DNA from: Calditrichales bacterium
Lineage (GTDB): Bacteria; Calditrichota; Calditrichia; Calditrichales; J004
Direction: 5' to 3'
Assembly (NCBI GenBank): GCA_965267575.1
Contig: OZ254086.1
Coordinates: 2,208,001 to 2,272,000 of the forward strand
DNA: 64,000 nucleotides
Positions 50,145 through 58,742 of the stretch are shown piece after piece (the stretch's first letter is position 1; the number at the start of each line of letters is the position of its first letter). The translations under genes were made by a program, and so were the position numbers. The notes under the pieces are model-generated. The model was not told the origin of the DNA and searched no databases. It saw nothing but the letters and a program-made list of their open reading frames with translations.

Positions 50145-51536
50145 ATGAGTTTAAAGTTTAATGTTGATACCGACCTGCTTAAAAAATATGACAGGCCCGG
50201 GCCGCGCTATACCAGCTATCCGACGGCGCCGCAGTTTCACCAGAATTTTAGCGCTTCCACCTATGAAGAGGAGCTGAAACGTTCTAACGCGGAAAAGCCC
50301 GGCGAGCCGATTTCGCTCTATTTCCACCTGCCGTTTTGCGACACGCTGTGCTACTTTTGTGGCTGCACCATGATCATCACGCGCAGCCGCGAGCGCATCG
50401 CCCATTATGTGGAGGTGCTCAAAAAAGAGATCGAGATGGTCAGCAGCCGCATCGACTCTTCGCGCAAGGTGGTGCAGTTGCACTGGGGCGGCGGCACACC
50501 CACCTACCTCAACCCGGATGAGATTGCCGACCTCATGGGCCACATCCACAACCATTTTAGCTTTGATGAAAAAGCCGAGATCAGTGTGGAAATTGATCCG
50601 CGTGGTTTGAGCGATGAACACCTGCCGGTCATGCGGGAGGCAGGCTTCAACCGTATGAGTATGGGCGTGCAGGACTTTAATGAAAAAGTGCAGAAGACCA
50701 TCAACCGCCTGCAGCCGGAGGCACTGACGCGGCGCATTTTGGAGCAGGGCCGCAAACTGGGCTATGAATCGATCAACCTGGATTTTATTTATGGCCTGCC
50801 TTACCAGACGCCGCAGACATTTGAATCGACGCTGGATACCATCCTGGACATCAATCCCGACCGCCTGGCGATGTTTAATTACGCCCATGTGCCGTGGTTG
50901 AAAAAACACCAGAATGTGATTCCAGAAAACGAACTGCCATCGGCGGATAACAAGCTGGCCATGCTCAAGATGATCATCGAGCGGCTGACCGAGAGCGGCT
51001 ACGTTTTTATCGGCATGGATCACTTTGCCAAGCCCGATGACCTGCTGAGCGTGGCTATGAACAATCATACCCTGCACAGAAACTTCCAGGGTTACACCAC
51101 CTACGCCGGCGCCGAAGTATTTGCCATGGGCATGTCATCAATCAGCCAGTTGTATAATTCGTTTGCCCAAAACCACAAGGATATAAAAACCTACGAAAAG
51201 GACGTGCAGGAAGGGCGTCTGCCAGTGCATGCCGGTTACCAGCTGGATGACGATGATAAGCTGCGCCGTTTTGTGATTATGGACCTGATGTGCAACAACA
51301 GGCTGATAAAAGAGGATGTGAACAAACGCTTTGGAATCGATTTTGACAGCTATTTTGCCGATGCGCTGGAAAAGCTGAAACCTTTTACCGAAGACAACCT
51401 GCTTGTTCTGGAAAAAGACCGCATTATTGTGAATAAGACCGGGCGGCTGGTTATCCGTAACATGGCGATGGCCTTTGACCGCTACCTGGAAAAAGACATG
51501 CAAAAGAATAAACCGCTTTACTCACGGACGGTGTAA
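50145..51536 (+). CDS. hemN: Oxygen-independent coproporphyrinogen III dehydrogenase
   Basis: GPRYTSYPTA, HLPFCDTLCYFCGC, GGGTP, IGMDHF, RNFQGY. Confidence 0.97.
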   Translation: MSLKFNVDTDLLKKYDRPGPRYTSYPTAPQFHQNFSASTYEEELKRSNAEKPGEPISLYFHLPFCDTLCYFCGCTMIITRSRERIAHYVEVLKKEIEMVSSRIDSSRKVVQLHWGGGTPTYLNPDEIADLMGHIHNHFSFDEKAEISVEIDPRGLSDEHLPVMREAGFNRMSMGVQDFNEKVQKTINRLQPEALTRRILEQGRKLGYESINLDFIYGLPYQTPQTFESTLDTILDINPDRLAMFNYAHVPWLKKHQNVIPENELPSADNKLAMLKMIIERLTESGYVFIGMDHFAKPDDLLSVAMNNHTLHRNFQGYTTYAGAEVFAMGMSSISQLYNSFAQNHKDIKTYEKDVQEGRLPVHAGYQLDDDDKLRRFVIMDLMCNNRLIKEDVNKRFGIDFDSYFADALEKLKPFTEDNLLVLEKDRIIVNKTGRLVIRNMAMAFDRYLEKDMQKNKPLYSRTV

Positions 51537-52915
51537 TGGCCCAAAAGGAGTATGATGTCGTTATTGTCGGGGCCGGCATTTCCGGGCTGGCCGCGGCACA
51601 CTTTCTGAAAAAGGCCGGAAAAAGCGTGGCCGTTATCGAAAAAGAAGATCGTGCCGGTGGCGTGATTGAAAGTGAGCAGAGCGACGGCTTTTTGATTGAA
51701 CACGGACCTAACAGCACCATGGGTGGCAAGGAGCCGGTGCAGCGTCTGATTGAGCAGGCCGGTCTTGCTGACAAGCAGCAGTTTGCCGCCGAAGAAGCCA
51801 AGTATCGCTACATTGTAAAAAAGGGCCGCCTGGTGGCCATACCGACAAGCCCGCAATCGTTTTTAAAAACACCGCTGTTTTCACTTTCCACAAAACTGGG
51901 GCTGCTTAAAGAGCCGTTTATTAAACCCGCGGGGCCGGACAAAAAAGAGACATTGGCCGAATTCGTTGAAAGACGCCTGGGGCGTGAATTCCTCGACTAC
52001 GCCATTGACCCGTTTGTAGCCGGGGTGTATGCCGGGAAGCCGCAAACGCTGATCGTAAAGAACGCTTTTAAACGGCTGTACGATCTGGAGCAGGAGCATG
52101 GCAGCCTGATTCGCGGGGCCATCAAACTGGCCAAAAAGCGCAAAAGCCAGGTTTCCGCCGGTCCCAGCGGACGCATTTTCTCCTTTGAAGGGGGCATGCA
52201 GACGATGACCGACCGGCTGGCGCACAACCTGGGCGACGATCTTTTTACGTCCGCCGCTATCTCCACCATTGATGAGGAAAACAATACTTTTACGATTGCT
52301 TTTAAGCGTGATGGGAAAGTGACGCGGCTTTCCGCAAAGGCCGTGCTTAGCACAGTGCCTTCCTACGATTTGCCACAACTGACGCTTGAAGTAAACAGAC
52401 GCCTGCTACAGCCCGTGGAGGAAATCCCCTACGCCAAGGTGGCCATGGTTTATTTTGGCTACAACAAAAAGCCGGACAACGTGCAGGCCAACGGTTTCGG
52501 CTTTCTGGTGCCTTCACTGGAGAAGCGCGAGATTTTGGGCACGCTGTGGAACTCGACGCTGTTTGCGGGTAGGGCGCCGCAGGGTGGTTTGGCGCTGAGC
52601 ACGTTTGTGGGTGGCAGTCGTCAGCCCGGGTTGACAGAAAAGGATGATGATGCCCTGAAGGAAATCGTGCAGCGTGAACTGGCCGACCTGATGGGGATTA
52701 AGGTTACGCCGGATTTTGTGCGCATTGTGCGCTGGCAAAAAGCAATACCGCAGTACACGGAGAAACAGGATGTGGCACTGCCGGCCATGGCTGCGATTGA
52801 GGAGAATAACCCGGGGCTGTTTATCGGCGGTAATTTCCGTGATGGCATCTCGGTTTCCGATTGCATTGTAAACGCGGAGAAACACGCGGAGAGGGTGGTT
52901 GCCTGGCTGAAATAG
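51536..52915 (+). CDS. hemY: HemY-type FAD-dependent proto/coproporphyrinogen oxidase
   Basis: GAGISGL, E.GPNS, GVYAG, GFGFL, AIPQY. Confidence 0.93.
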   Translation: MAQKEYDVVIVGAGISGLAAAHFLKKAGKSVAVIEKEDRAGGVIESEQSDGFLIEHGPNSTMGGKEPVQRLIEQAGLADKQQFAAEEAKYRYIVKKGRLVAIPTSPQSFLKTPLFSLSTKLGLLKEPFIKPAGPDKKETLAEFVERRLGREFLDYAIDPFVAGVYAGKPQTLIVKNAFKRLYDLEQEHGSLIRGAIKLAKKRKSQVSAGPSGRIFSFEGGMQTMTDRLAHNLGDDLFTSAAISTIDEENNTFTIAFKRDGKVTRLSAKAVLSTVPSYDLPQLTLEVNRRLLQPVEEIPYAKVAMVYFGYNKKPDNVQANGFGFLVPSLEKREILGTLWNSTLFAGRAPQGGLALSTFVGGSRQPGLTEKDDDALKEIVQRELADLMGIKVTPDFVRIVRWQKAIPQYTEKQDVALPAMAAIEENNPGLFIGGNFRDGISVSDCIVNAEKHAERVVAWLK

Positions 52916-52934
52916 CCTTTCCTTACGAGTTGAA

Positions 52935-53030
52935 TTATTTACCATGAAGAGCATGAAGGACATGAAGTGTTTAGAGATTGAAGAGCAAAAAGTGTCAATT
53001 ATTCTTCTGCTCCTTAATCCTTCAAGGTGA
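52935..53030. repeat. Inverted pair of the 9-nt-period CATGAAG motif (upstream of GxxExxY)
   Basis: Forward TTATTTACCATGAAGAGCATGAAGGACATGAAG 52935-52967; degenerate reverse copy 53004-53030. Confidence 0.85.
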
Positions 53031-53036
53031 GTAAAT

Positions 53037-53414
53037 ATGAAAAGAGAATTTAGTGCTTTATCAAATAAGGTAATTGGCTGCGCAATTGAGGTGCATCGTA
53101 ATTTGGGGCCGGGCTTATTGGAGAGCACGTATCATCAGTGTTTGGCGCATGAGCTAAGAAATAGCAAAATAGAATATAAGTCTGAATACCAGCTGCCGGT
53201 TTTATACAAGGGACAGAAAATTGATTGCGGCTATCGCGTTGATCTGCTTATAGAAAGTGAATTGATTATTGAAATTAAGAGCGTAGAAAAGATTTTGCCC
53301 ATTCACGAGGCGCAACTTTTAACTTACATGAAGCTGGCAAAAATAAAACAGGGATTCTTAGTAAACTTCAACGTAAAACGTCTTACGAACGGCCTAAGAA
53401 GTTTCGTCCTATAA
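53037..53414 (+). CDS. GxxExxY protein (PD-(D/E)XK nuclease-like)
   Basis: LGPGLLESTY signature, YRVDLL, IEIKS, AQLLTY, G.LVNF. Confidence 0.95.
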   Translation: MKREFSALSNKVIGCAIEVHRNLGPGLLESTYHQCLAHELRNSKIEYKSEYQLPVLYKGQKIDCGYRVDLLIESELIIEIKSVEKILPIHEAQLLTYMKLAKIKQGFLVNFNVKRLTNGLRSFVL

Positions 53415-53422
53415 AAACCTTA

Positions 53423-53533
53423 AATATGAAGAGCATAAAGAACCCAAAGGTTTAACTAAGTGGAGAAGCAAGGAAGCCAAGGTGATAAAAACTTCCTATT
53501 CTTCATGCCCTTCATGTCCTTCATGGTGAATAA
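53423..53533. repeat. Inverted pair of the CATGAAG motif (downstream of GxxExxY)
   Basis: Degenerate forward copy 53423-53449; reverse CTTCATGCCCTTCATGTCCTTCATGGTGAATAA 53501-53533. Confidence 0.85.
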
Positions 53534-53550
53534 AAAGAAAGAAGACGCAA

Positions 53551-54525
53551 ATGGAATTTAAACCTTATTACAGGCCGCGGCGGCTGCGCAAAAACGCACT
53601 GATCCGTGGGATGGTGCGTGAAACCACGCTTACGATGGATGACCTTATTTTGCCGCTGTTTGTTACGGCGGGCAAGGAGTCCAAGCCTATTAGTAGCATG
53701 CCGGGGCATTCCCAGTTGACGCTGGATGATTTGAAAAAGGAAGTCAAAGAGCTGGAAAAGATGGGCGTGAAAGCGATCATCCTGTTTGGCATACCGGCGC
53801 TGAAGGATGCCGATGGCAGCGATGTGCGCAGCAGCGACGGTATCATCGCCCAGGCGTTGCGGGTGATCAAAGATATCAATCCCAACCTGTATGTGATTAC
53901 CGATGTCTGTTTTTGCGAGTACACCGACCACGGGCACTGTGGGCACCTGACCCCGGACGGCGATGTGGACAACGACGCCACGCTGGAGATGCTGCAGGAG
54001 CAGGTGATCGTGCAGGCGCAGAACGGCGTGGACATGGTGGCGCCATCGGGGATGATGGACGGTATGATTGCCGCCATCCGTGAAGGGCTGGATGAAAACG
54101 GTTTTGAAGATATCCCGATTATGAGCTATGCCGCCAAGTACGCTTCCGGTTTTTACGGTCCCTTCCGCGAAGCGGCGGAATCGACACCGGCTTTTGGCGA
54201 CCGTGCCAGCTACCAGATGGACCCGGCCAACGCCATGGAAGCGGTGCGTGAGATGGAGCTGGACGTGGAAGAGGGCGCCGATATTTTGATGGTAAAACCG
54301 GCCATGCCTTACCTGGACATCATCCGCGTGGCCCGCGAGCGTTTTGAACTGCCCGTGGCCGCTTACCAGGTTTCGGGTGAGTTTGCCATGATCAAGGCCG
54401 CCGCCGAAAAGGGTTGGCTGGACCATGACCGTGTGGCCCTGGAATCACTGATGGCCATTAAACGCGCCGGCGCTGATTTGATTTTGAGCTATTTTACAAA
54501 GGAAGCCGTGCGCTGGATTGGGTGA
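53551..54525 (+). CDS. hemB: Porphobilinogen synthase
   Basis: [39 protein letters not shown]. Confidence 0.99.
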
Positions 54526-54530
54526 TTCAT

Positions 54531-54940
54531 TGCACCATGAAGGACAGGAAGAGTATGGAGCCGGATGCGTTGTCATCCCGGCCTTCGCGCCGGGATCTTT
54601 GGTGGTTTGAGTCTTGATTGTCATCTCTAATCCGCGTAGCGGTGAGAGATCCAGGGTTTAGCATACTCCCGGATTTCTTAACATTTACAGAAATGACAGG
54701 GTGGGCGTGTGAACCCATCCCCCGGCCCCTTCCCTTGTTCCAAAGGAAGGGGAGAAAAACGCCTTTGGTAAATATCGGGTGTAACGGGATGTGATTCCGG
54801 TTGAGCATGATCCCGGATTTCTCACGTTCGTTCGAAATGACATAAAGATGCTGAAATGAATTCAGCATGACGTTCCTGGCGTCATCCCGAACTTGTTTCG
54901 GGATCTAATGCTTCATGACCTTCATGCTCTTCATGGTGAA
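54531..54940. repeat. Composite repeat block: CATGAAG inverted pair enclosing six GTCAT-tagged hairpins and one C/G-rich hairpin
   Basis: Forward motif 54531-54560 and reverse 54911-54940; GTCAT hairpins at 54571, 54619, 54671, 54815, 54846, 54880; CCCCTTCC/GGAAGGGG at 54726-54752. Confidence 0.9.
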
Positions 54941-54961
54941 CAAAAAATTTAAGGAGTAAAA

Positions 54962-56254
<1,293 letters not shown>

Positions 56255-56351: not shown

Positions 56352-57050
56352 CTAACAAATAACATCAGGCCAGCTTATTATGCCGGCAAGATATTCATTA
56401 ATTACTATTCTAATTTCAACACCAGAATTCTGTGATGCCAAATACCTATATACGCCAGGTTGAACGACAATCCATCCGTGATCATTAATATCAATTCCGG
56501 TAAATAATCGGGTCATAGCTCTGCTTCCTACTTCAGGAAACAAGCTTGATTCGGGCTGCGCTTCAAATTCAAATCTTGTTTTTTCATCTAAAGCACACAA
56601 TGGAAAAAGCGAAACGGAATCAGGTTTTATATAAACCGGTAAATGCAACTCGAACAAAGAATGGCCCTTTGCAAGTTTCGTTATGACGTTTTGTATTCGT
56701 TCCGTTTCAGGTGTGAAAATTATTTCGTTGTTTTCTTTTATTATAGAATTCTGAATCCTTGCACGAAGGGATCCTTTCTTTCTCAGAATCCTTGCTATCC
56801 TTTTTCTCATTATCAAATCTGGATCAGTGGAACCTGATAAAACGCATGCCATTAAACAAGCCATATACTCTTCATCAGCCGAAAAACTGTTATTGCATTC
56901 TACGCATGCAGGCACCACCGGCAAATTGTCCGGGTAGGGTTGGTCAAGCAAAATCTTAGACGGACAATGATCTCTTGTTCCCGTCTTTCCGCCGCAAAAA
57001 GCGCAGAAGCCGATTTCTCTTTGATCACCGTAACTTCTAATTTGCTTCAT
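56352..57050 (-). CDS. HNH endonuclease-like protein
   Basis: CAFC..TRDHCP..VPACVECNN zinc-binding HNH pattern. Confidence 0.8.
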   Translation of the reverse strand: MKQIRSYGDQREIGFCAFCGGKTGTRDHCPSKILLDQPYPDNLPVVPACVECNNSFSADEEYMACLMACVLSGSTDPDLIMRKRIARILRKKGSLRARIQNSIIKENNEIIFTPETERIQNVITKLAKGHSLFELHLPVYIKPDSVSLFPLCALDEKTRFEFEAQPESSLFPEVGSRAMTRLFTGIDINDHGWIVVQPGVYRYLASQNSGVEIRIVINEYLAGIISWPDVIC

Positions 57051-57486
57051 TTTTGTTCAGCAAAAATTTGGCTACAATAAGGCTGGATAAGGTTGACAGT
57101 GTGCGTTTTCTAATAGTCTCGTTTTTTAATTCGCATTGCCACACGGTTAATACCTTCCAACCGGCTTTTTTCAGTTCGGTTGATTTAACCTTGTCTCGCT
57201 CAACGGTTTTGGAGATTTTCTCTTTCCAGAATTTTGTGTTTGTGGCGGGCAATGAGGCCTGAGGACATCCTCTATGTCCATGCCAGAAACAACCGTGTAC
57301 AAAAATTACTGTTTTATATTTGGGCAAAACAATATCCGGTTTACCGGGTAGCTCCTTAACGTTTTTTCTAAATCTGAAGCCTTCCGCAAACAAGTAAGAA
57401 CGAACCAATATTTCAGGCGTTGTTTCCTGCCCATTAATATTTGACATAATTTTAGATCGCTTATGCTTAGAATATATATCTGTCAT
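57037..57486 (-). CDS. vsr: Very short patch repair endonuclease
   Basis: MTD..RS..MS, T.PE, LPGKPD, FVHGCFWHGH, FW..K, RD, WQC. Confidence 0.95.
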   Translation of the reverse strand: MTDIYSKHKRSKIMSNINGQETTPEILVRSYLFAEGFRFRKNVKELPGKPDIVLPKYKTVIFVHGCFWHGHRGCPQASLPATNTKFWKEKISKTVERDKVKSTELKKAGWKVLTVWQCELKNETIRKRTLSTLSSLIVAKFLLNKNEAN

Positions 57487-58742
57487 CTAATAATTGACAA
57501 TCCTAATCTAGCAGTATGAGATGCCATTTTTTGTAATACATCGGCAAAAAGCTTTTCTTTAACCCTAAATAGTAATTTATACTTGTTTTCATCATTTAGT
57601 TCTTCTTTAGAAATAAATCCCAGTATTCTAAAATCGAAAACTATTATTTGAGGTTCGTTTTTGCCCTCTAAGAAAATAGGCCACAATTCTTTATAGAAGC
57701 TATCTGGCAACTGTCTTTTTGAATTGCAAGTATGATAATACCCTGCAAGGACTCTAGGACTTTTAGATTTATTGTTCGCATAATCGCAAGGCGGTGTCAT
57801 CTCAATTATAATAGGTGAGGCGCCCTCGGGAAGCTCACCATATCTAAAAGAGTTCTCTTTTTGCATTACTTCATATACGTTTCCAGGAATAACTTTATTT
57901 TGCGATATATGCACTTGATCAACTAATAAACTTGAATTTATTTTTGCATAAATCTTATATAATTCTGCAGAAACCGTTTTTTTTGTCTCTGCTTTTATTG
58001 ATTTATTTTCGTTGTCTAAATACTCTATTTCACTCGTTTTTGTAAATAAAGTGAAATTTTCCGAGATGGAATTAATATTATATACTAACATGTCATTGAA
58101 TGCTTTTATTGCATCAATACTTAAAGGATAATCGTCAAGCTCTTGCAAACTAATTCCAGTATAATTCTGAGCCAACTTAAATAACAAAAACTCTAAATTC
58201 TTATCCTGTTTTGTGTAATCAGGAACTAGGTCAAATATCGAAGAAATAGCATTGTCACGACCTTGATTTACTAACCTACTCCAGCTAATAAAAAAATGTG
58301 CTGCGATACTCTCTCTTAATTCATTATCTAGATCATTTAACAGATTATCGTAGCCATCCCTTAAGTATTTTTGCTTATCTAAACCACAAATAAAGAGCGG
58401 TAGCGAATAGGTATCTTTATCAAGTTGAAGTTTTTCTTTAATTGTATCAATATGATGCTGGTGGTTAGTCCAAACAACAAGGCCATATGTGCCAAAGTTT
58501 TTCCCAACAATATTTTTAAAAATTTTTCTTATTTCTGCAATATGACCTTTCAATTCCGTTGCAGTATTACTCAGATATATATCCAAAAAAATAATTTTAC
58601 GATTTTTCAGCTCCTTTACGCAATCTTCAGGCAGCTTATGCTTTACCCAAATGTCATTTTCTTCAAGCAGTTCTTTTAACTTCTGAATTTCTTCAGGCTT
58701 ATCATCAATAATTAAAGCGCTATCAATAAATTCTAATACCAT
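57483..58742 (-). CDS. Receiver (REC)-domain protein with uncharacterised C-terminal domain
   Basis: LIIDD, IFLDI (phosphoacceptor Asp), VWT, DK; C-terminal PG.VY and TPPCDY motifs. Confidence 0.75.
   Translation of the reverse strand: MVLEFIDSALIIDDKPEEIQKLKELLEENDIWVKHKLPEDCVKELKNRKIIFLDIYLSNTATELKGHIAEIRKIFKNIVGKNFGTYGLVVWTNHQHHIDTIKEKLQLDKDTYSLPLFICGLDKQKYLRDGYDNLLNDLDNELRESIAAHFFISWSRLVNQGRDNAISSIFDLVPDYTKQDKNLEFLLFKLAQNYTGISLQELDDYPLSIDAIKAFNDMLVYNINSISENFTLFTKTSEIEYLDNENKSIKAETKKTVSAELYKIYAKINSSLLVDQVHISQNKVIPGNVYEVMQKENSFRYGELPEGASPIIIEMTPPCDYANNKSKSPRVLAGYYHTCNSKRQLPDSFYKELWPIFLEGKNEPQIIVFDFRILGFISKEELNDENKYKLLFRVKEKLFADVLQKMASHTARLGLSIIR

Follow-up and report, generated by a model that had tools for sequence, protein, structure and literature searches.

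A small gene cassette interrupts the hem gene cluster in a 64-kb stretch of the genome of a Calditrichales bacterium (GenBank contig OZ254086.1, positions 2,208,001 to 2,272,000; hereafter the window, to which coordinates refer unless a genome position is stated). The cassette (52935-53533) lies between hemY and hemB, encodes a GxxExxY protein with a PD-(D/E)XK nuclease fold, and is enclosed by inverted arms made of repeats of the word CATGAAG. We put at roughly 55% the probability that it is a horizontally acquired selfish element, consisting of a GxxExxY nuclease gene and its own inverted arms, which also serve as the ends of its gene-less copies. The evidence for this is the insertion itself, its framing by the arms, the co-inheritance of protein and word across phyla, the co-occurrence of gene and arrays, and the presence of one gene for each array family. 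The cognate link between the GxxExxY clade and heptamer arrays is well supported by comparison among genomes; the mechanism is inferred.

Each arm strings together about three copies of a 7-bp word, CATGAAG in this cassette, spaced 9 bp apart and preceded by a conserved outer end, (T)nCACC. In the proposed scheme, the encoded protein would recognize these words, and the arms would act in cis as the ends through which the element, along with its gene-less copies, is made or kept. The nine other arms in the genome, the pair between hemB and hemL included, may be non-autonomous derivatives or relics of one master gene, by analogy with the REPINs of RAYT genes.

An insertion in the hem cluster and its arms

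The genes hemN, hemY (51536-52915), hemB (53551-54525) and hemL (54962-56254) all lie on the plus strand and are intact by their Pfam matches. The spacer between hemY and hemB on that strand (52916-53550) measures 635 bp and is almost entirely cassette. Beyond the arms, about 19 nt and about 17 nt of the host's own spacer are left, which makes 52935-53533 a fair estimate of the inserted unit. The GC content of the spacer is 37.6%, compared with 54.6% for hemY, 56.4% for hemB and 49.6% for the genome, in keeping with the first-pass annotation of this DNA, which had described an AT-rich cassette that damages neither neighbor. In all five relatives of the same order that hold both genes, hemY directly adjoins hemB without a GxxExxY gene, the kind of empty site that the annotation had proposed to look for; these empty sites are from distant relatives only, whose hemY proteins are 43-48% identical. 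The hemY-hemB spacer of the relative G010 is 44 nt. Judged by its composition, by the short spacer of G010 and by the adjacency of the two genes in relatives, the 635-bp spacer is an insertion and the cassette is foreign. The insert-free form was not seen over 52600-53528 in DNA contigs from four runs of one sample; these contigs, which break at repeats, show no differences from the window and probably derive from the source sample, so they are not independent of it.

The left outer arm (52935-52967, plus strand) consists of TTATTTACC followed by three CATGAAG units with the spacers AG and GA. It scores 29/30 (at 52938), where the score is the number of matches to a 30-nt consensus, ungapped, computed at every genome position. 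The right outer arm (53501-53533, minus strand) has three units with the spacers GA and GG and the end GGTGAATAA; it scores 30/30 and lies 17 nt before the hemB start codon. The two arms are 88% complementary over 33 nt, the 29/33 inverted match reported initially. A second pair lies beyond hemB: a partly decayed arm, CATGAAGGACAGGAAGAGTATGGAG, at 54531-54560 (plus strand; 26/30), 5 nt past the hemB stop codon, and an arm at 54911-54940 (minus strand; 29/30), 21 nt before the hemL start codon. The inverted match between 54533-54561 and 54910-54938 covers 29 nt at 76%, and that between 52935-52967 and 54911-54943 covers 33 nt at 91%. The two-unit pattern CATGAAGnnCATGAAG, with up to two mismatches allowed, has nine matches in the window, all within 52943-54935; shuffled sequences gave a mean of 0.36, and none of 100 reached nine. 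In this pattern scan the CATGAAG motif occurs nowhere else in the 64 kb, as had been noticed at the outset.

Six copies of the motif had been listed. The four strong arms (52938, 53501, 54531, and 54911) stand, and so does a decayed inner arm 3' of the gene (53420-53449, plus strand; TATGAAGAGCATAAAGAACCCAAAG). This arm departs from the two-unit pattern at two positions and scores 23/30, a value found at only three genome positions; when its flank is folded, it is paired with the right arm (z -1.78). The sixth copy, at 53004-53030 on the minus strand, may be another decayed inner arm, which would form a hairpin together with the left one. It scores below 21/30, and ungapped matching alone does not distinguish it from chance; folding of the flank does pair it with the left arm (z -2.15). 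Its end, AAGGTGA, lies 7 nt 5' of the ATG and could be a ribosome-binding site.

The genome is a single contig of 4.73 Mb. Thirteen positions score at least 24/30, and 11 of them are clear arms at 24-30, followed by a sharp drop in the score distribution. Four of the 11 are the two inverted pairs of the hem locus; the other seven are at genome positions 305414, 1222511, 1234312, 1271965, 1459785, 1574304, and 2664966. The 30-mer at 1234312 is identical to the right arm of the cassette, and the arm at 1271965 differs from the left arm by one base and has the same spacers. These seven arms are intergenic and turn their (T)nCACC end towards the nearest gene; the one at 2664966 overlaps the final codons of a large open reading frame (ORF). 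ORFs, here and in the analyses of framing rank, orientation and array distance, are greedy longest-ORF calls rather than the output of a gene caller. Over 2664966-2665009 the arm gives the last codons (HHEGHEELEGG...) of this 1050-aa ORF.

With four of the 11 arms in the hemY-hemB-hemL spacers, the arms might be thought to be binding sites of a haem-pathway transcription factor, the alternative that the first-pass annotation had tied to a motif restricted to hem promoters. We consider the chance of this close to nil. The other seven arms are at unrelated loci, and in four other phyla GxxExxY genes are flanked by this same word. A three-unit pattern with the CACC prefix, searched in 39 genomes of the order, has 10 matches in this genome, one in G023 and none in the others, with 0 in the reversed control. 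The 37 of 38 other genomes that lack the motif keep the hem cluster, and the motif is therefore neither a hem regulatory site nor a feature of the lineage. A hem regulatory site was accordingly rejected on the distribution of the motif in the genome, the order and across phyla. G023 also has a gene-less hairpin (L009 1480-1540) in which CATGAAG and CACGAAG units are mixed in one arm; the GxxExxY gene of the same genome (L004, 59% identical) is flanked by CACGAAG arrays.

The hemB-hemL pair had been interpreted as a gene-less derivative of the cassette, an interpretation that its interior does not support. Pair and cassette have only the two arms in common. The 350 nt between the arms at 54531 and 54911 contain no gene but other dispersed repeats, and no GxxExxY remnant was found there (best tblastn E 0.096). 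This interior (54561-54910) is a mosaic of dispersed hairpin repeats, for example GTCATCCCGGCCTTCGCGCCGGGATC and CCCGGATTTCT...GAAATGACA, which look nested inside the CATGAAG pair and parts of which occur up to 17 times in the genome. In G010, a relative from another family, the hemB-hemL spacer (L007 2484-2830) is about 570 nt and is filled with long direct arrays of GAAGTARG with a period of 8; hem operon junctions therefore collect different array families in different lineages.

Protein, word and arrays across phyla

The cassette gene (53037-53414, plus strand) encodes a protein of 125 amino acids. Its sole Pfam match is PF13366 (E 1.8e-42; 144.8 bits against a cut-off of 22), and it also matches TIGR04256 (E 6.9e-44; 148.9 bits against a cut-off of 35), which bears out the initial assignment to the GxxExxY family. 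The motif residues G26, E29 and Y32 are present together with the catalytic residues of the PD-(D/E)XK set, D69 and E79-x-K81. An alignment of 58 rows shows no variation at G26, E29, Y32, or D69, while E79 and K81 are nearly invariant (90% or more). A confident AF2 model (pLDDT 96.6) has the alpha/beta fold of restriction endonucleases, and its best structural neighbors are all PD-(D/E)XK nucleases, among them the nuclease domain of BpuSI (Z 8.0), the Cas4 protein SSO0001 (Z 7.9) and Hjc (Z 6.5), and no single close relative stands out. A Foldseek search with the model gave no match at E 0.001 or better, and a sequence search of the PDB gave no relative of the protein.

Relatives of the protein were collected from one genome per species using alignment A2, the eight-row alignment A1 being too diverse. 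The scan returned 591 relatives. The best 79 loci, at 50-73% identity, are from Methylococcaceae, Nitrospirales, Desulfobacterales, Caldilineaceae, Planctomycetota, Acidobacteriota, Verrucomicrobiota, Omnitrophota, a Methanothrix record and others. An inverted repeat with a score of at least 13 between the 300-nt flanks is present at 56 of the 71 homologous loci whose flanks are complete and in 28 of 213 mismatched flank pairs, a control that is conservative because many loci share words. At least three CRYRRAG heptamers occur in the flanks of 75 of 87 genes, those of this genome and of two relatives included. Motif discovery in the flanks of GxxExxY genes across taxa, together with a test of repeat-protein co-phylogeny, had been suggested in the first-pass annotation. 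Over the 87 genes the words are CACAGAG (31), CACGAAG (26), CATGAAG (5), CGCAAAG (4), CACGGAG (4) and others (5), and fewer than three copies are present at 12. When the words are placed on a protein tree, a quick one of 125 columns with few supported branches, they change 29 times; with shuffled words the figure is 47.3, and none of 200 shuffles came down to 29. The five CATGAAG genes, from this genome, Methylococcaceae, Caldilineaceae, Verrucomicrobiales and a Planctomycetota record, account for one change (support 74); they comprise the nearest relatives of the window's gene and span five phyla. On this tree it is the clade of the protein, and not the host, that the heptamer tracks.

One residue of the protein varies with the word. 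Outside the CATGAAG clade, where every word has C at position 3, 81 of 82 proteins have Arg at position 122, and the lone protein without it has a disrupted C-terminus. The five proteins whose word has T at position 3, the window's protein included, all have Ser122.

The arrays were also counted in the genomes that carry the close homologues. With up to two mismatches allowed, three-unit CATGAAG matches number 10 in G086 (Methylococcaceae), 9 in G087 (Caldilineaceae), 71 in G088 (Verrucomicrobiales) and 35 in G089 (Planctomycetota), compared with one in the control G090 (Nitrospirales), which has a CACGAAG-type gene. The reversed pattern gave 0 in all five. Each of G086-G089 has exactly one gene at 63-73% identity to that of the window, with other paralogues at 46% or less, and each contains inverted doublets of CATGAAG arms. 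By these counts, CATGAAG arrays are numerous only where a CATGAAG-clade gene exists. The gene-less copies in G089 are compact hairpins of about 75 bp directly past stop codons, made of ACC, three CATGAAG units, an A/T-rich loop of 15-20 nt and the inverse arm. In G088 and G089 the gene itself (at L170 and L171) has a full hairpin on either side, the arrangement that had been proposed from the window.

Two further copies are of interest for their form. In G024 (L002 1150-1350), a gene-less copy just upstream of a 67%-identical GxxExxY gene has a CACGAAG-type 5' arm, the first ~15 nt of the ORF and a 3' arm, and looks like an internal-deletion derivative. The other is in Bacteroides finegoldii (NZ_OY725952.1; L172 640-1125), a cultured species, where a compact cassette with a 52% identical GxxExxY gene lies between radA and the gene of an FAD-dependent protein. 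TTCACC and three CRCRGAG units start 1 nt past the radA stop codon, and the inverse arm ends 7 nt before the ATG of the next gene. This record is one of only seven plasmid matches, all below 60% identity and all non-mobilizable. A search of 50,697 phage records for a carrier gave no match, and no phage or plasmid carrier is evident.

Recognition sites, RNA stems and other framed genes

The arms are mostly three units long (runs of 2-4 heptamers), and the spacers between units are 2 nt in 111 cases, 1 nt in 39 and 3 nt in 18. When the two arms of a locus are compared at the 49 loci arrayed on both sides, the cores agree at 839 of 882 positions (95%) and the spacers at 77 of 138 (56%); the background for spacers, from arms of unrelated loci, is 38% (sd 7%). 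Mismatches between arms, read on the sense strand of 65 loci, are of the G·U type in 78 cases and of the A·C type in 84 (p 0.69). Because the cores agree so much better than the spacers and the mismatches are without G·U bias, the pattern of conservation suggests protein recognition sites rather than an RNA stem.

The latter would be expected of an RNA-level element of the rRNA intervening sequence (IVS) type. Its arms would pair in the hem transcript and be cut by RNase III, the ORF would be freed and the insertion rendered harmless, and the repeats would serve the stem. Folding of the 635-nt spacer does pair the outer arms (52935-52967 with 53501-53533) over about 31 bp, in the minimum-energy and the centroid structure alike, and among loci with agreeing neighbors the gene is co-oriented with them at 40 of 47 and opposite at 7. 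Moreover, PF05635 proteins were first known from 23S IVSs with a 28-bp stem cut by RNase III, according to PMC4990558. The fold of the whole spacer is, however, not exceptional (z -1.46), and a stem needs neither the contrast between cores and spacers nor the conservation of the cores across phyla. The mismatches between arms show no wobble bias on the sense strand, and solo arms are unable to form a stem at all. We therefore regard an IVS-type element as improbable here.

Other genes in the genome are framed in the same manner. There are six PF13366 genes, and four of the five besides the cassette gene are framed by inverted short-period arrays of different words: CACAGAG (genome position 804352), CGCAAAG (a tandem pair at 4493381 and 4493963) and a TGATT-type word (1404490). 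The remaining paralogue (1018918-1019376; L021) has no arrays and is the only one to have lost E79, K81 and Q93 (IIEIK to VVFIR); it may be a domesticated or dead copy. A uniform framing score, the best ungapped inverted repeat between 250-nt flanks, was computed for 4240 ORFs and has a median of 8 and a 99th percentile of 13. The hem cassette scores 21 and ranks fifth. Of the ten GxxExxY and PF05635 genes, five are ranked 30th or better and nine 275th or better.

Compared with a reversed-genome control, arrays are abundant: 11 vs. 0 for CATGAAG, 31 vs. 0 for CACAGAG, 74 vs. 1 for TAACAC, 50 vs. 3 for CAAGAC, 66 vs. 0 for GATCnT, and 14 vs. 1 for CCCAATT. Each of these word families has many gene-less arrays and adjoins only one of the GxxExxY and PF05635 genes, and eight inverted pairs with loops of 28-219 nt are found for CACAGAG. 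Arrays of the CGCAAAG and TGATT types are found only beside their own gene. The arrays sit at the edges of spacers with the fixed end outward. Their median outer distance is 6.5-38 nt and their inner distance 167-195 nt, and the outer distance is the smaller in 8/9, 23/31, 67/74 and 38/48 arrays. It is because of this placement that ordinary genes such as hemB look bracketed, in the opposite polarity.

These distributions bear on two further explanations. In one, the GxxExxY and PF05635 genes are passengers: the arrays would be ends or targets of a host factor or another enzyme, and the genes would be cargo in the hairpins or would home into them. Two unrelated protein families with the same packaging fit this idea, as does the preponderance of gene-less arrays (74 TAACAC, 50 CAAGAC, and 31 CACAGAG, against one gene each). 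The genome also has an IS200-like Y1 transposase gene (PF01797, E 1e-27) that could be such an enzyme. Yet the word tracks the protein clade over five phyla, arrays are missing where the gene is missing, the CGCAAAG and TGATT-type families occur only beside their own gene, and the repeat that frames the Y1 gene is another one, a palindrome. Passenger genes are thus an unlikely account of these loci.

In the other explanation, the protein would be part of a domesticated DNA-binding system that binds the arrays for regulation, for insulation of operon junctions or for defence, and that has no mobility of its own. The position of the arrays at spacer edges, with the fixed outer end towards the gene, and the single gene per family would suit such a role. 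An insert into an originally short operon spacer would, however, end up close to gene ends in any case. Relatives have an empty site, the insert is AT-rich, the catalytic residues are conserved, and cross-phylum homologues at 63-73% identity, together with in-frame stops in 4 of 79 homologues, are signs of a transferable and decaying element. Domestication is in our view quite unlikely.

Several findings weigh against the cassette being a selfish element of a nuclease and its own ends, and the main points that it leaves unexplained are the equal packaging of the non-nuclease PF05635 genes and the solo arms. All four PF05635 genes of the genome (G000:C1 663300-663716, 665648-666079, 1528447-1528869, and 4661356-4661730; L024-L027), which encode four-helix-bundle "23S IVS proteins" without a nuclease fold, are framed by their own short-period inverted arrays; the words are CAAGAC (period 8), TAACAC (period 8), GATCnT (period 6), and CCCAATT (period 7). 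In the phylum, 19 of 26 PF05635 genes are framed, compared with 4 of 104 controls. Because such genes are framed too, nuclease chemistry is not established as the mover of the elements, and no PD-(D/E)XK nuclease is known to perform strand transfer by itself. The early proposal is thus borne out in part: the words and array counts above support a GxxExxY protein cognate to the repeat, and these PF05635 genes tell against reading the nuclease simply as a transposase. As for the arms, their description as always paired is true of the window only. All seven arms outside the hem locus are solo and at unrelated loci, and one sits in a spacer of 72 nt, too short to accommodate a partner. The scan of the genome thus gave the intergenic distribution that had been anticipated, with one arm overlapping an ORF end, but neither the pairing nor the enrichment near GxxExxY genes, since none of the seven is near one.

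Other points concern the cassette ends and the protein-word association. No target-site duplication was seen in the sequence at the ends of the cassette. Fifteen of 71 loci score below 13 for inverted repeats, and 12 of 87 genes have fewer than three heptamers. The CATGAAG-clade gene of G089 has an in-frame TAA, yet its 35 arrays are kept. The clustering of protein and word could partly be plain co-descent of linked DNA. The link between Ser122 and T at position 3 is a single evolutionary event and is therefore a lead, not a test; an independent-pairs test of the N-terminal residues F5, S9, and N10 against GAAG or AGAG words had only two usable pairs. Sequence-specific binding, cleavage and the route of copying are steps that we infer.

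Some side observations belong to the same genome. Over 1528447-1528490, the GATCAT array encodes the DHDQEHDHDQD tail of the PF05635 protein. A 97-aa GIY-YIG gene (4255995-4256288; L145) lies within a 74-nt inverted repeat of GTCATTCTGAAC...GTTTCAGAATC hairpins, and a DUF559 (Vsr-like) gene (4170476-4170865; L143) is bracketed by inverted repeats. The IS200-like Y1 transposase gene (1198078-1198545; L142) is framed by AACCGATTCATCGGTTT palindromes. A RAYT as mobilizer of the arrays was considered and rejected, as the palindromes of this gene are its own and differ from them. In the window, a Vsr mismatch endonuclease gene (57040-57486; PF03852, E 2.8e-34) lies on the minus strand between AT-rich ORFs of 232 and 419 aa, neither of which has a Pfam match; this region (56355-58742) may be a restriction-modification or defence remnant.

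Relation to known systems and wider meaning

The closest parallel drawn in the first-pass annotation was with RAYT genes and REPINs, with a non-HUH enzyme. The population structure is indeed similar. In REPIN-RAYT systems, too, each genome has a single gene with its own repeat on both sides and with numerous gene-less copies elsewhere (PMC3116915, PMC3337134, 10.1101/2022.05.22.493013), and repeats are present only where the gene is. Inverted doublets with a short loop, common among such copies, have counterparts in the ~75-bp hairpins of G089 and the eight CACAGAG pairs. Here, however, a PD-(D/E)XK protein takes the place of the Y1/HUH transposase, and the arms are runs of heptamers at 8-10 bp spacing, not the imperfect palindrome of a REP. 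Many arms in this genome are solo, and only two arm pairs are doublets. RAYTs are described in those sources as mostly vertical in descent, whereas close GxxExxY homologues are spread over many phyla at 63-73% identity, and of the 38 other genomes of the order, 37 lack the motif.

The IVSs of 23S rRNA with an S23p (PF05635) gene are similar in another way. The IVS of Coxiella is described as a 428-nt selfish element with a 28-bp terminal stem, excised by RNase III, whose S23p ORF has no known function, and older proposals of IVSs as mobile elements are cited in the same source (PMC4990558). Both kinds of element have an ORF of about 120 aa between terminal inverted repeats able to close a long stem, lie within a transcription unit without harm, and are apparently transferred horizontally (PMC4990558). 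The four PF05635 genes of this genome, moreover, carry the same short-period inverted arrays. The cassette differs in that it lies between the protein-coding hemY and hemB rather than in an rRNA helix, encodes a nuclease-fold protein, and has arms of iterated words whose mismatches show no RNA-pairing bias.

Classical transposons and homing genes offer partial likenesses. Mu, Tn7 and En/Spm have several subterminal transposase-binding sites in each end, with the ends inverted. The cassette resembles them in its repeated short site and inverted ends; it differs in its length of ~0.6 kb, in the lack of a DDE, HUH, serine or tyrosine recombinase, and in showing no target-site duplication. Homing endonucleases, those of the PD-(D/E)XK type included, recognize the uninterrupted target. 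A small nuclease gene in conserved loci, with an empty site in relatives and a patchy distribution over phyla, is reminiscent of homing endonuclease genes, but here the conserved words belong to the insert and occur also as many gene-less copies. PF13366 is entered as "unknown," with multiple transfers, in a table of PMC3424549. Our literature search, which left most subscription journals outside its range, found no work that links the GxxExxY/TIGR04256/PF13366 or PF05635 families to dispersed repeats.

Related genes with the same word in four other phyla point to a widespread and apparently undescribed kind of selfish DNA. A broader proposal, which we advance tentatively and think has some chance of being right, is that a single large class of mini-elements crosses phyla, with GxxExxY nucleases and four-helix-bundle "rRNA IVS" proteins as its protein components. 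The arms of such elements would be made of iterated words of 6-9 bp read by their own protein, and they would spread and shed gene-less hairpins and solo arms without the known families of transposases or recombinases. The ORF-bearing IVSs of 23S rRNA would then be the special case of an element that landed in rRNA. If the GxxExxY protein does read its own arms, a very common family of "hypothetical" genes would have a role, many short-period intergenic repeats in diverse phyla would find an explanation, and the long-standing problem of the origin of rRNA intervening sequences could be put to the test. A small sequence-specific nuclease whose word changes from clade to clade (CATGAAG, CACGAAG, CACAGAG, CGCAAAG) would be open to study, with the compact copy in Bacteroides finegoldii providing a cultured host.

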